Sequence record: PX645697.1
Length of the DNA: 64,000 nt
Source: a phage
Direction: 5' to 3' (one strand)
The position numbers and the translations under genes were made by a program. Below, piece after piece: positions 56,071 through 58,180 of the stretch (the stretch's first letter is position 1; every line of letters starts with the position of its first letter). Below the pieces are notes generated by a model. That model searched no databases. It was not told the origin of the DNA and was given only the letters and a program-made list of their open reading frames with translations.

Positions 56071-58101
56071 TTAACCTCTATTCAATGAACATTTAGGAGA
56101 ATTACAATAAACTTGATTCATAGAACCAAGCGTACAACTTTCAGCATCGCGCCACGGAATCTGCTTAAAACACTCTGAGCAGTAGCCGAGGGTTGACCAC
56201 ATTGCTTTGGTGAAGTCAGTACTTCGGTTTCCGTCGAAGCTGACAACAGTTTTGCGGAGAGCTGTTCGTGATTCAGGAAACACACCTGCTTTCTCAGCAG
56301 GTTCCTCCTTTTTTGGCTTAGTTGAGATTGCAAAAATACTGTTGCTACGTTTCTCAACATAAGCATCAACAACATCCTCCAGAGTGATGCCTGTCTGTTT
56401 CGCTGAGGAAGGTAATACAGTCATACGACCAATCATATCTTCAGTTACACGTAAAGCAAACTCAGGACGACGGGCGTTTGTTGTATCTGTTGCTTTAATC
56501 CAGACATAACCATCTTTGATCGTAGCATTAGATACCTTCTTCTTTACATCTACAGCGCAGACTTTACAGATATCTTCACCACGAAGACGACTAAGTTCTT
56601 CATCGAACTCATTCTCCGTTTTAACTTCACCGCAGATTTCACAAACACCAATAGGAGTTTCCTCCTCTTCTTCCTCTTTAGGTTTAGTCAAACCTTCCAG
56701 ACATTCAGTATGCCAATAGCACTGATATGCGAAGACTGCTTTAGGTGCATCCTTCCAATCAATGTGCTTGTCACAACCACCACAGTCACCATGAGAGTGT
56801 GCTTCCCAGAATTTACGAGTGATAGTAACGCCATTCTTGTTGACGAAACTATCATTCATGTCAAAAGGGATATCATCATCAAAGTCAGCAGTAGTAGACT
56901 CAGGCTCCTTTTTCTCCAGAGATGGGTCAACAAAACGACCTGCTGTGATCACTAAACGAACCATAGCATTAACTTCGGAGATGCAGGATACTGTCCCACG
57001 GTAAACAATTTTAGGGTCTTTCAGTGCGTCCTGATAAGCCTTAATGTCTACGTTATGAACATCACCTTCGATGTACTCTTGAGACTTCTCATCGTAGATA
57101 TAGCCAATCATCTTACCACGAGAAGGAACAGCACCAGCAGTTGCATAAGGAACAAACTCATGCGGAGTGATTTCCACAGTCATGTCGCGGCGAATGTCAA
57201 TGTTTCGATCGCTTGCGATTTTGTTTTGACTTACCACTGCGTTTCTTCGACGAACGTCTGCCGCTGTCACTCCCGGCTTCGTGTCGTAAGGATTGCTTGT
57301 ATTGCTTTTTGAGGAATTTTGATAGTTGCTTTGGCTGTAGTTGTTCGAGTAATAACTGGCCCAACGATTGACTACCGTAAAAACCGGAAGCTCGTGGGCG
57401 ACCTCTTCAACCAGAGTCATACTGTTGTTTGACATATCAAAGATATATTCTGTACCAACTTTACATTCAAAATGCTCGTCAATACGATTCTTATGAGACT
57501 TAGAACGCTTCAGAATCCACATCAACATATCTTCTTCAGAAGCACCAAACCAATCTCTGTTACAACGTGCGAGGTGGAATGGACGCTCTTCGTTACGGAT
57601 GATATGAAGACGGTTATCAGAAGCATCATGCCAGATTAAAGTGAAAGCACCATCCAGCTTTTGAATAGTCTCTGCTGCACCAATAGTGTTAATAGAGTGG
57701 CAGATGTTCTCACTGTCTACCTCGAAGTTTTTGCTGTCAGGTAACAGATCTTGGTCCATCAAGGTTCCATTATGAACCAGAGTGATGTTACCATGTTGGA
57801 AAGGATGGGCGTTCTTGGCGTTAACTGCACCTTTCGTTGCATGACGGCTGTGACCAACAATCCATGAAGGTGCTACAGTGTAAGCTGTTTCACCAGTGGT
57901 GTGCTTCTTGTACTCATCTTGTAGGATGAATGCGAAAGAAGGAAGAGCTTCTTTATAAGTGAAGACTTCCTTAGTGCTTTTACGCTGACCAAAGATACCG
58001 GAGGAGTGTTGTCCTCGGAATACACCAGCATAAAAGAGTTGGTTAAATACGTCTAAATCAGTGCTTGACAGATTACCGCCAGCTAATACGATGCCACAAA
58101 T
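56071..58101 (-). CDS. class-II (Ntn) glutamine amidotransferase domain fused to Cys-rich zinc-ribbon C-terminal region; predicted AUU start
   Basis: frame open to 58104; N-terminus (M)CGIVLAGG...FRGQHSSGIF...IVGHSRHATKG...HPF...LVHNGTL matches GATase class II; AGGTGG SD 8 nt before ATT; stop two codons upstream; six-frame ORF starts at 57762 and lacks this domain. Confidence 0.65.
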   Translation of the reverse strand: MCGIVLAGGNLSSTDLDVFNQLFYAGVFRGQHSSGIFGQRKSTKEVFTYKEALPSFAFILQDEYKKHTTGETAYTVAPSWIVGHSRHATKGAVNAKNAHPFQHGNITLVHNGTLMDQDLLPDSKNFEVDSENICHSINTIGAAETIQKLDGAFTLIWHDASDNRLHIIRNEERPFHLARCNRDWFGASEEDMLMWILKRSKSHKNRIDEHFECKVGTEYIFDMSNNSMTLVEEVAHELPVFTVVNRWASYYSNNYSQSNYQNSSKSNTSNPYDTKPGVTAADVRRRNAVVSQNKIASDRNIDIRRDMTVEITPHEFVPYATAGAVPSRGKMIGYIYDEKSQEYIEGDVHNVDIKAYQDALKDPKIVYRGTVSCISEVNAMVRLVITAGRFVDPSLEKKEPESTTADFDDDIPFDMNDSFVNKNGVTITRKFWEAHSHGDCGGCDKHIDWKDAPKAVFAYQCYWHTECLEGLTKPKEEEEEETPIGVCEICGEVKTENEFDEELSRLRGEDICKVCAVDVKKKVSNATIKDGYVWIKATDTTNARRPEFALRVTEDMIGRMTVLPSSAKQTGITLEDVVDAYVEKRSNSIFAISTKPKKEEPAEKAGVFPESRTALRKTVVSFDGNRSTDFTKAMWSTLGYCSECFKQIPWRDAESCTLGSMNQVYCNSPKCSLNRG

Positions 58102-58180
58102 TTTCTAATCCACCTGAAGGGTAAACCCTTTCATCTAATTAACCTTTAAATTGTGCCCCTTTATCAGAGACACCCATTGA

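Follow-up and report, generated by a model that had tools for sequence, protein, structure and literature searches.

Organization of the amidotransferase locus

The window (the whole 64,000-nucleotide stretch of phage DNA that was analysed, record PX645697.1) comes from a phiEco32-like Kuravirus and is 97-98% identical to phiEco32. On its minus strand, an amidoligase gene is followed, after an intergenic leader of 79 nt, by a predicted glutamine amidotransferase gene whose reading frame contains no canonical start codon ahead of its catalytic cysteine codon. Neighbouring genes encode proteins of the Amidoligase_2, COOH-NH2 ligase and ATP-grasp families. The features that concern the gene and its start are the following:

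56071-58101, minus strand: full coding sequence of the amidotransferase, a homologue of phiEco32 gp83, 676 codons plus stop when counted from ATT; the phiEco32 CDS phi32_83 maps to the same start
57574-57876, minus strand: core of the GATase_6 domain, residues 76-176 (Pfam PF13522, 55.1 bits against a cutoff of 27)
58096-58098, minus strand: TGT, predicted Cys1 of the mature enzyme (N-terminal nucleophile); C2 is invariant in the family alignment, and MCGIV aligns to GlmS residues 1-5
58099-58101, minus strand: ATT, the proposed initiation codon (AUU), at the position of ATG, GTG or TTG in homologues and invariant in ~97 genomes
58102-58107, minus strand: in-frame TAG (58107-58105) and a single AAA codon, making up a stop-3 nt-AUU junction
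58110-58115, minus strand: AGGTGG, resembling a Shine-Dalgarno sequence, 8 nt upstream of ATT; relatives have the variants AGGAGG and AGGCGG at the equivalent place
58153-58173, minus strand: terminator-like hairpin (MFE fold), located past the amidoligase stop codon and ahead of the leader
58181-59284, minus strand: upstream gene for an Amidoligase_2 family enzyme, a homologue of phiEco32 gp84 (Pfam PF12224, 33.9 bits; record annotation)

The initial annotation had proposed AUU initiation from three observations: the frame opens directly after an in-frame TAG, the Cys codon comes immediately after ATT, and AGGTGG lies 8 nt upstream. Re-reading the minus strand bore out all of these and every coordinate given for them. 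The order is AGGTGG (58115-58110)-ATTAGAAA-ATT (58101-58099)-TGT (Cys), and the TAG is followed by AAA (58104-58102) ATT (58101-58099) TGT (58098-96) GGC ATC GTA TTA GCT GGC GGT, which is translated from AAA 58104 as K I C G I V L A G G. Where relatives have AGGAGG, its spacing to ATT equals that of AGGTGG here, and TAG-AAA-ATT is also found in BUCT695, L033, L037 and L039. The first canonical in-frame start is indeed far downstream, a TTG at codon 114 that corresponds to 57762 of the mechanical ORF list. Of the 47 frames in the window that stay open for 150 codons or more, the amidotransferase frame has by far the longest stretch free of start codons (114 sense codons). Two canonical triplets lie out of frame beside the AUU, UUG at 58099-58097 and GUG at 58097-58095, and these could compete for the same SD-bound ribosome. 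In phage WFI101126, a terminator feature is annotated within a 1-kb match to positions 57400-58400 of the window.

Family assignment of the gene product

By sequence comparison, the gene product is a class-II (N-terminal nucleophile, Ntn) glutamine amidotransferase of the phiEco32 gp83 type. It matches PHROG family phrog_4736 from residue 2 (E 6e-201), and position 1 of the family profile (M-C-G-I-V) aligns to residue 1 of E. coli GlmS (E 3.5e-16). In addition to GATase_6, the Pfam model GATase_7 is matched (27.4 bits against a cutoff of 25). Residues C2, R29, N111-G112 and D129 are invariant in the family alignment, and the conserved Arg, Asn-Gly (oxyanion hole) and Asp of the glutaminase site are all present. 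With ATT-TGT as the beginning of the gene, the catalytic Cys directly follows the initiator Met position, as expected of class II.

The phage domain resembles the Ntn domains of GlmS and PurF in its N-terminal Met-Cys-Gly-Ile-Val, its HNG oxyanion motif and its conserved Asp, and the profile aligns to GlmS residues 1-174. Unlike GlmS and PurF, the phage enzyme has no isomerase or PRTase domain. Its C-terminal part, ~450 residues long, is phage-specific and Cys-rich, and a search of the PDB by sequence with this part returned no match. Translation from 57762 would damage the catalytic domain, as had been pointed out in the initial annotation: Cys1 would be lost and the GATase_6 match would be cut through.

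Comparative evidence for AUU as the start codon

The family counts 379 IMG/VR and 315 cultured-phage homologues. A canonical start (ATG, GTG or TTG) is present one codon before Cys in five of six distant cultured-phage homologues; ATG-TGT is found in Privateer, GAP52, SE131, LAh_9 and PJNS034, and GTG-TGT in APT65. Further homologues have ATG (PaP3, JB8 and a Vibrio phage) or TTG (PP21). At 73 IMG/VR loci, the codon before Cys is ATG in 61, TTG in 2, ATT in 9 and ATC in 1 (canonical in 63 of 73), and 10 of 18 metagenome loci have a canonical start there. Met directly precedes Cys in all homologues with canonical starts. Starts at ATT or ATC recur in at least eight lineages of the phage amidotransferase family, and in all 12 ATT/ATC loci of the family the frame from the preceding stop to Cys is free of canonical starts.

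Purifying selection acts on codons 2-113, which show a dN/dS of 0.08-0.10, saturated synonymous sites (dS at least 1.5) and no stop codon in any genome compared. The TAG and the ATT are unchanged in ~97 genomes of two genera. Neither error nor chance accounts for the arrangement, since 69 phage records carry a 65-nt stretch with 100% identity and another 28 have it with a single synonymous difference.

The identification of ATT 58101 as the initiation codon is well supported at the sequence level, because homologues carry ATG, GTG or TTG at this position, a Shine-Dalgarno-like sequence lies at 8 nt, and no canonical in-frame start is present between TAG and Cys. The AUU proposal of the initial annotation thus gains support from homologue start positions and SD spacing, and also from the profile alignment, dN/dS and depositors' annotation. 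The GenBank CDS begins at the equivalent of ATT 58101 in phiEco32, SU10, Bas89 and Bas91; many other GenBank records truncate the amidotransferase gene. The AUU start is therefore already annotated in the type phage phiEco32 and is not new as an annotation. In SU10, gp85 was detected with 9 peptides, so the protein is made (PMC4281155). For this or related phages, the searchable literature yielded no N-terminal peptide, ribosome profiling or reporter evidence.

Conservation of the leader

The initial annotation was incomplete in that it missed (i) a mini-ORF starting at the in-frame ATG 58134, (ii) a hairpin, (iii) the invariance of the leader and (iv) the existing annotation of the AUU start. 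The leader contains the following features:

58105-58134, minus strand: mini-ORF ATG AAA GGG TTT ACC CTT CAG GTG GAT TAG (MKGFTLQVD*), 9 codons, in frame with the amidotransferase
58143-58147, minus strand: AAAGG, which may serve the mini-ORF ATG as ribosome-binding site and belongs to the ancestral 5' leader that ATG-type relatives also have
58116-58133, minus strand: candidate small hairpin of AAGGG (58130-58126), loop TTTA and CCCTT (58121-58117), with 2-4 weaker extension pairs
58097-58162, minus strand: invariant leader, a 66-nt block with 0 variable sites among 11 distinct Kuravirus sequences

The mini-ORF ATG (58134-58132), which is preceded by TAAAGGTTAATTAG, lies in frame 11 codons upstream of ATT and is separated from it by the TAG (58107-58105) alone. 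In GAP52, the counterpart of the AAAGG region reads AATAGATGAAAGGAtttttagtATG. The mini-ORF is conserved in Suseptimavirus phages, and in the Aeromonas phage BUCT695 it encodes MKGLTLQAD*; relative to the window, its nine codons carry two non-synonymous changes and none that is synonymous.

A 50-nt segment of the leader is the most conserved stretch of the region. In the Kuravirus comparison (11 sequences), the mean is 7.6 variable sites per 50 nt, and the absence of any variable site from the 66 nt of the leader, against 3-18 in neighbouring 50-nt bins, argues for purifying selection on the present sequence. Positions 58097-58146 are the only 50 nt with 100% identity to three Suseptimavirus genomes, against a mean of ~70%, and the flanking coding DNA is saturated at synonymous sites (dS at least 1.5).

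The candidate hairpin has a fold energy of -6.1 kcal/mol, equal to that in BUCT695, where the sole change is in the loop. Its z-score is -0.7 to -1.3, statistically indistinguishable from shuffles, and covariation is uninformative since the leader is invariant and the single variant alters the loop only. We rejected an alternative, SD-sequestering hairpin formed by GGUUUACC and GGUGGAUU in a 121-nt MFE fold: two of its pairs are broken in BUCT695, and four are G-U pairs.

Other signals were considered for the leader and rejected. The consensus of phiEco32 gp36 middle/late promoters, tAATGTAtA, sits 6-8 bp upstream of the transcription start, with known promoters before genes 6, 13, 26, 40, 58 and 68. 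It is absent from the leader, which instead has AAAGGTTAA, a motif unique in the window, and no promoter is listed near CDS85/86 of SU10. A known RNA family or riboswitch was likewise discarded, the Rfam covariance models giving two chance-level matches only (E 1.5 and 4.5). A suppressor tRNA or altered genetic code was set aside, there being no tRNA gene in the 64-kb window, as was an antisense sigma-70-like promoter at 58065-58092, whose -35 element is not conserved in ECBP2.

The start-site string beside homing endonuclease genes

The SD-TAG-AAA-ATT string also stands in place of ATG before T4-type gene 15 and T7-type virion genes, directly 3' of HNH endonuclease genes. The T4-type gp15 gene is essential; its start reads GGGGGATTAGAAA-ATT-TTTGG in Dev_CS701, L187 and L204, where relatives have ATG-TTTGG, and the string matches that of the amidotransferase. 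For the internal virion protein phrog_805, the alignment runs from profile position 1 at the ATT. HNH endonuclease genes or remnants lie directly upstream of the string in L033 (phrog_374), L037 (HNH_3, 51.7 bits), BUCT695 (remnants), T4-type phages (phrog_655 in Dev_CS701) and L147/L184 (phrog_2633 in L184). BLASTP among the endonucleases of L033, L037 and Dev_CS701 revealed no mutual homology; a common endonuclease gene therefore does not account for the 3' end that they share. At the amidotransferase locus, none of the ~97 phiEco32-like genomes, the window included, has an endonuclease gene.

That distant genes have exactly AGGNGGATTAGAAA+ATT in common was considered as proof of a mobile module, an argument then downgraded, since the same 14 nt with ATG are common. 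In an ATG control scan, AGGNGGATTAGAAA+ATG gave at least 120 IMG/VR matches, marking it as a common phage initiation region, which reduces the weight that the occurrence of the string before unrelated genes can have as a sign of lateral transfer or special function. The bulk of the matches in the ATT-T scan (~55) were dismissed as coding coincidence, ..WTKGGLENFKNNP.. being read in another frame, and a scan of genome contigs returned chance matches only, plus one phiEco32-like contig inside a MAG.

Replacement of a start ATG by ATT (or TTG) might be a mark that homing-endonuclease invasion repeatedly leaves in phages, a tentative idea that we would not expect to hold but take seriously. Unrelated HNH genes would insert at the starts of the amidotransferase, gp15 and internal virion protein genes, ending in or followed by AGGNGG-AUUAG-AAA-AUU, and the weak AUU would be fed by ribosomes terminating 3 nt upstream. 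The phiEco32 group would have lost the endonuclease, with the 9-codon mini-ORF keeping the coupling, which would explain the invariance of the leader. If so, the AUU could protect the invaded allele from re-cleavage, and the downstream, often essential, gene could depend on translation of the endonuclease frame. As with the free-standing homing endonuclease cassettes of T4-type phages (seg, mob), HNH genes abut the starts of the amidotransferase, gp15 and internal virion protein genes in relatives. In T4-type cassettes, HNH endonuclease genes lie between conserved genes, next to target sequences of high conservation, and genomes that carry them have altered flanking DNA (PMC2988022). Unlike these cassettes, the window itself has no endonuclease gene, and homing by the relatives' endonucleases is putative. 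We found no literature description of a downstream gene's ATG replaced by ATT or TTG beside endonucleases.

Alternative explanations

An error of sequencing or assembly, or an amber mutation acquired in the laboratory, that hides a normal ATG has nothing beyond prior plausibility for a single genome in its favour, and we dismiss it: 69 independent records and 5 metagenome contigs have the identical sequence, which is also conserved in a second genus and an Aeromonas phage. We also see next to no chance that codons 1-113 are an untranslated, decaying remnant and that translation from TTG 57762 or some later start yields a protein of 563 residues. This would agree with the mechanical ORF list (56071-57762), with the lack of a CDS over the leader in about three quarters of annotated phiEco32-like records, with the annotation of ECBP2, SU7 and BUCT695 from downstream ATGs, and with the expected mass of 63.8 kDa in the SU10 proteomics table (PMC4281155). 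However, the downstream starts differ between genera (codon 114 in the window, an annotated ATG at about codon 11 in ECBP2/SU7, codon 6 as the first canonical start in BUCT695), the shortened protein would lose Cys1 and Arg29 and have a split GATase_6 domain, and decay is at odds with the low dN/dS (0.08-0.10), saturated synonymous sites and uniformly open frame of codons 2-113. Amber read-through is very improbable as well. Here translation would start at ATG 58134 and pass the UAG at low frequency, and the 12-residue MKGFTLQVD-X-KI would be removed autocatalytically to leave Cys1. Some Ntn amidotransferases are made with cleaved propeptides, that of Bacillus subtilis PurF being 11 residues, and ATG 58134 would give an extension of similar length, with Cys1 likewise exposed by removal of upstream residues; this ATG is in frame, follows an AAAGG at a distance of 8-9 nt, and is conserved in BUCT695 and every phiEco32-like genome. 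Unlike in B. subtilis PurF, the frame from the canonical start to Cys is interrupted by a TAG that is invariant in ~97 genomes and is also found in BUCT695, L033, L037 and L039, and no suppressor tRNA gene lies within the 64-kb window. Nor is the extension conserved in other contexts: the frame upstream of the TAG is unrelated elsewhere, being the C-terminus of an HNH endonuclease in L033 and 4-codon frames in L039 and L164, which argues that there is no conserved propeptide. The changes in the BUCT695 mini-ORF (two non-synonymous, zero synonymous in 9 codons) and the Met directly before Cys in all canonical-start homologues also speak against read-through.

The AUU start could also be real with a leader that has no special translational role, its invariance and sharing being due to DNA-level events (gene conversion driven by homing endonucleases, or recent recombination involving a strong but generic initiation region) and the mini-ORF and hairpin being accidental scars. 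We consider this unlikely. It would account for the HNH genes or remnants directly upstream in L033, L037, BUCT695, T4-type phages and L147/L184, and for BUCT695, whose amidotransferase is nearer to that of the ATG-type GAP52 (64% identity) than to that of the window (55%), yet whose leader has 92% nucleotide identity to the window leader. The commonness of AGGNGGATTAGAAA+ATG and the non-significant hairpin also fit. However, ongoing conversion is unlikely with no endonuclease gene in ~97 phiEco32-like genomes, and the Kuravirus leader has 0 variable sites in 66 nt where neighbouring 50-nt bins have 3-18.

Proposed mechanism and comparison with known systems

Our preferred explanation, to which we assign a probability of about 0.8 as a whole, is that a gp83-type amidotransferase is started at AUU, partly by re-initiation, and that the leader is kept by selection. 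The amidotransferase would be an early gene inside a long polycistronic mRNA, on which AGGUGG, 8 nt upstream, would place the 30S subunit on AUU 58101-58099. Removal of fMet would expose Cys1, as in E. coli GlmS and PurF, and the AUU-started product would have the predicted N-terminal peptide CGIVLAGGNLSSTDLDVFNQLFYAGVFR, with an N-terminal Cys. The in-frame UAG 3 nt upstream would block any N-terminal extension. Ribosomes that translate the mini-ORF and terminate at this UAG probably supply part of the initiation at AUU, because the stop-3 nt-AUU junction and the conserved 9-codon AUG mini-ORF reproduce the thrS-infC layout. Since AUU is a non-canonical triplet that IF3 discriminates against (PMC5499595), output is expected to be lower than at AUG (4- to 20-fold in published reporter measurements) and may be IF3-sensitive. 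The right half of the leader (GTTTACCCTTCAGGTGGATTAGAAAATT) appears to have taken the place of an ancestral spacer and ATG; this replacement may be the scar of a homing-endonuclease insertion, now held by purifying selection.

A close parallel is E. coli thrS-infC, which likewise has an AUU start, an upstream SD and a stop exactly 3 nt before the AUU (UAA GGU AUU, compared with UAG AAA AUU here), and in both systems the AUU is phylogenetically conserved. The phage site also shares with infC an AUU at the homologues' start position, the lack of a canonical in-frame alternative, and the SD spacing. In reporter work on the infC junction, about half of initiation is re-initiation and half is de novo, at one quarter of the AUG level (PMC3592434). 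Unlike in infC, the upstream frame here is a 9-codon mini-ORF, whose translation is putative, and not a full gene. The phage gene does not encode a translation factor, and hence no autoregulatory loop suggests itself. IF3 dependence here is hypothetical, and the two sites have no sequence similarity. E. coli pcnB, which encodes poly(A) polymerase, is alike in having a non-canonical AUU in an otherwise ordinary enzyme gene, and its AUU start has been read as limiting translation (Binns and Masters 2002, as cited in PMC3592434). Unlike that of pcnB, the phage AUU is embedded in an invariant leader. We know of no adjacent upstream stop or mini-ORF at pcnB.

Implications

ORF callers that disallow ATT starts truncate this gene in most deposited phiEco32-like genomes, and gp15 in several T4-like genomes; the true product here would have 676 residues, the catalytic Cys included. 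In E. coli, AUU is very rarely a natural start codon, infC and pcnB being the cases. As far as sequence comparison goes, the phage AUU start is almost certainly real but not unprecedented, E. coli infC working alike. The locus would add to thrS-infC another stop-3 nt-AUU junction, strongly conserved and located in a coliphage, and with it a small natural model for IF3-discriminated initiation, and for re-initiation, in infected cells. If the endonuclease connection is true, it would add a translational dimension to the way in which selfish endonuclease genes settle beside essential genes.

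The amidotransferase start site

A class II amidotransferase needs a free N-terminal cysteine, normally produced by removal of fMet from Met-Cys. The initial annotation had the gene for such an enzyme opening at AUU, and on re-reading the minus strand all of its coordinates were correct: an in-frame TAG and a single AAA codon come before ATT, ATT lies directly 5′ of the Cys codon of CGIVLAGG, and AGGTGG (58115-58110) is 8 nt upstream of ATT. No canonical start occurs in frame before TTG 57762 (codon 114), and initiation there would remove the nucleophile and split the domain. 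Missing from that description were an in-frame ATG mini-ORF beginning at 58134 and a hairpin inside it. From 58134 the minus strand reads ATG AAA GGG TTT ACC CTT CAG GTG GAT TAG AAA ATT TGT GGC ATC GTA TTA GCT GGC GGT, and the order of elements is TAA, terminator-like hairpin, TTTAAAGGTTAATTAG, ATG (58134), mini-ORF, TAG, AAA, ATT, TGT.

Features at the start of the amidotransferase gene
58183-58181, minus: stop codon TAA of the amidoligase gene
58173-58153, minus: terminator-like hairpin between the amidoligase stop and TTTAAAGGTTAATTAG
58134 (ATG) to 58107-58105 (TAG), minus: mini-ORF MKGFTLQVD, 9 codons, in the amidotransferase frame
58130-58117, minus: short hairpin AAGGG-TTTA-CCCTT within the mini-ORF
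58107-58105, minus: in-frame TAG, followed by a single AAA codon
58101-58099, minus: ATT, proposed start, adjoining the Cys codon TGT

An out-of-frame UUG (58099-58097) and GUG (58097-58095) overlap the AUU site and could be rivals for initiation there. The amidotransferase frame has the longest start-less N-terminal stretch among the 47 long open frames of the window, with no ATG, GTG or TTG in its first 113 codons (codons 2-113, 57762-58098, minus). This property is not conserved in Suseptimavirus or BUCT695 and may reflect chance or avoidance of internal starts behind a weak AUU. In two other frames, 25067-25528 (minus) and 8232-8840 (plus), 74 and 55 sense codons, respectively, precede the first canonical start; these could be non-genes or further mis-startable genes.

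The N-terminal domain and the start position in the family

The N-terminal part is a real, translated amidotransferase domain. Residues 76-176 match Pfam GATase_6 (55 bits, cutoff 27), the PHROG phrog_4736 match begins at residue 2, and a profile built from ten diverse family members aligned from its position 1 (M-C-G-I-V) to E. coli GlmS residues 1-174 (E = 3.5e-16). The family alignment shows no variation at Cys2, Arg29, Asn111-Gly112 or Asp129. Between Kuravirus and Suseptimavirus, dN/dS of codons 2-113 is 0.08-0.10, with synonymous sites saturated, and equals that of the remaining gene. Nine peptides of the amidotransferase were detected in SU10 proteomics (PMC4281155), which shows that the protein is made but does not bear on where it begins. 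The C-terminal third (56071-57100, minus) has many paired cysteines, e.g. GDCGGCDKH, CEICGE...CKVCA and CSECFKQ...CNSPKC, which suggests zinc-ribbon modules; sequence searches of the C-terminal part gave no Pfam or PDB match. A sigma-70-like promoter match (TTGACA-16-TACGAT, 10/12; 58065-58092, plus) lies antisense to the amidotransferase start, directed into the leader; its -35 hexamer is not conserved in ECBP2.

With tblastn we found homologues in 315 phage records, nearly all alignments beginning at Cys1. The codon directly before this Cys is ATG in Privateer, GAP52, SE131, LAh_9, PJNS034, PaP3, JB8 and a Vibrio phage, GTG in APT65 and TTG in PP21; at 73 IMG/VR loci it is ATG (61), TTG (2), ATT (9) or ATC (1). 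The ATT therefore stands exactly at the family's start-codon position. All 12 ATT/ATC loci examined lack a canonical in-frame start from the nearest upstream stop to the Cys. In a rough neighbour-joining tree, ATT/ATC loci fall in at least eight separate lineages, each with ATG-type neighbours. At one IMG/VR locus (L098, IMGVR_UViG_3300008050_000183, ~480-720) the gene carries a second copy of its 5′ end: a 73-codon ORF is joined to AAGGAACTATT-ATC-TGTGGATTAGTAGGTGTTGG, and after it come a new ribosome-binding site and TTG-TGTGGATTAGTGGGTGTTGCC. The arrangement has the appearance of a further insertion at the gene start; in the related locus L105 the real start is the same ATC.

Conservation of the leader

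No other stretch of the locus is as conserved as the leader. In 69 records the sequence at 58150-58086 (65 nt) is 100% identical; 28 more show a single synonymous change (GGC to GGT), and identity in Aeromonas phage BUCT695 is 92%. In a 2.8-kb comparison with three Suseptimavirus genomes (mean identity ~70%, dS at least 1.5), 100% identity is reached in a single 50-nt window, 58146-58097. The 11 distinct Kuravirus sequences vary at 198 sites over 1.3 kb, none of them between 58163 and 58096, a pattern that argues for purifying selection on the leader within Kuravirus. Comparison with the promoter consensus led us to reject the leader as a gp36 promoter, and it matched no Rfam family. For the mini-ORF hairpin the fold energy is -6.1 kcal/mol in the window and likewise in BUCT695, whose single change is in the loop; the hairpin was not significant against shuffles, and the leader offers no covariation.

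Alternatives to initiation at AUU

The SD at 8 nt and the placement of ATT where the family starts make initiation at AUU the simplest reading, and the proposal in the initial annotation is supported with a probability of about 0.8. A sequencing error or indel hiding a normal start is excluded, since the leader is identical across many records and across genera and the string of SD-like sequence and TAG-AAA-ATT also occurs in metagenome loci. Amber read-through of the TAG with propeptide removal would also expose the Cys, but is disfavoured: the TAG is invariant, the window has no suppressor tRNA, and other TAG-AAA-ATT contexts have unrelated in-frame sequence ahead of the TAG. A truncated product from a downstream start is contradicted by the domain matches, the invariant catalytic residues and the dN/dS of codons 2-113, and by the loss of the nucleophile and the split domain that a codon-114 start would entail.

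Existing annotation

Escherichia phage phiEco32 and other Kuravirus phages match the window at 97-98% identity. The phiEco32 GenBank CDS phi32_83 ("glutamine amidotransferase") begins at exactly the same ATT, as do the CDSs in the SU10 (SU10_085), Bas91 and Bas89 records; the ECBP2, SU7 and BUCT695 records start the gene at a downstream ATG. About three quarters of the annotated records matching the leader have no CDS over it. The ATT start is thus a depositor's choice dating to 2008 and applied inconsistently, and an AUU start is already implicit in some database records; our literature search found no paper discussing it for the phiEco32-type gene. The expected mass of SU10 gp85 in the proteomics table, 63.8 kDa, fits a 563-residue truncated ORF (PMC4281155), whereas SU10_085 as deposited has 676 codons from ATT. 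In Escherichia phage myPSH1131 (MG983840.1, ~60052-60796) the N-terminal 223 codons match in two pieces with ~76 extra bases, which suggests that the gene in this record contains an insertion or duplication or was misassembled; the leader is intact. An 8-kb contig in a Peptococcaceae MAG (CALKAR010000070.1, L052) carries a phiEco32-type leader and amidotransferase start and is probably a binning contaminant.

The same string before other genes

Genes 14 and 15 of the T4-type phages Dev_CS701, L187 and L204 have a homing endonuclease gene (phrog_655) between them. It ends in CAGCAGGGGGATTAG, after which comes AAA ATT TTT GGA..., which encodes IFGYWYNSS..., the N-terminus of gp15 (function as given in record annotations). 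This start reads ATG TTT GG... in endonuclease-free T6, RB49 and three Klebsiella phages, and Klebsiella phage phi1_146015, with a different endonuclease upstream, has TTG. The true starts of gp15 in Dev_CS701 and phi1_146015 are ATT and TTG, which is why both are annotated too short. In Enterobacteria phage T6 (NC_054907.1, L212; locus 151 versus 199) the RefSeq gp15 begins 16 codons downstream, and a normal ATG with MFGYFYNSS... is present upstream of that start.

On two T7-type contigs (L147, L184) the string's TAG terminates an endonuclease VII-type gene (phrog_2633), and ATT begins an internal virion protein whose alignment to phrog_805 runs from profile position 1. At two other loci (L164, L205) a hairpin and the string precede a 274-codon virion protein whose first 50 codons include no canonical start. 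Judged from these contexts, AUU in this string must serve as start codon of needed virion genes. The same 14 nt followed by ATG gave at least 120 hits in a phage scan, 87 before ORFs; 14 nt plus ATG is thus a common phage initiation region, and the string itself may be generic. Mutual homology was not found among the three endonucleases compared. Endonuclease insertion linked to ATG loss appears as a pattern in a handful of cases, no established rule, and our literature search found no description of it.

Origin of the ATT module

At the homologous place, ATG-type GAP52 reads AATGTAAATAGATGAAAGGAtttttagtATG; L058, L059 and L063 likewise belong to the ATG type. Ancestral 5′ UTR seems to survive in the left part of the leader (TTTAAAGGTTAATTAGATGAAAGG), and GTTTACCCTTCAGGTGGATTAGAAAATT seems to have replaced the ancestral spacer and ATG. 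(C)AGGNGGATTAGAAA-ATT-TGTGG also precedes amidotransferase homologues of only ~35% identity, from soil metagenomes (L033, L037) and IMG/VR (L039). L035 and L033 encode proteins with no difference over 220 residues, but in L035 an ATG overlaps the stop of the upstream gene (GAATAATGTGTGG), unlike L033 with its ATT string. That ATG has become the start of an HNH+AP2 endonuclease gene (Pfam HNH_3, 51.7 bits) in L037, where the ATT string comes after this gene; in L033 the string's TAG terminates a different HNH gene (phrog_374, E = 6e-64). The BUCT695 amidotransferase is closer to that of GAP52 than to that of the window, and decayed HNH and HTH fragments lie upstream of its leader. These form an unannotated pseudogene (2804-3003 of the BUCT695 locus, L006) between gp041 and the amidotransferase gene, its ATG overlapping the gp041 stop (TAATG).

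Relation to infC

AUU starts are exceptional in E. coli, being those of infC and pcnB (PMC3592434), and AUU, AUC and AUA count as non-canonical for IF3 (PMC5499595). UAG-AAA-AUU here and UAA-GGU-AUU at E. coli thrS-infC have the same geometry. In reporters the thrS-infC junction gives about twice the expression of an isolated AUU and about a quarter of that of an AUG version, re-initiation and de novo initiation contributing roughly equally (PMC3592434). In the phage, ribosomes would initiate at AUU from the SD 8 nt upstream, and the conserved AUG mini-ORF ending at UAG may supply terminating ribosomes; the expected consequence would be low output, possibly IF3-sensitive. Most worth follow-up are the recurrence of ATT/ATC starts in this family of phage amidotransferases and the association of neighbouring HNH endonuclease genes with ATT/TTG starts. 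On comparative grounds, the AUU start would be a new, well-conserved case of infC-like initiation at a stop-3 nt-AUU junction.
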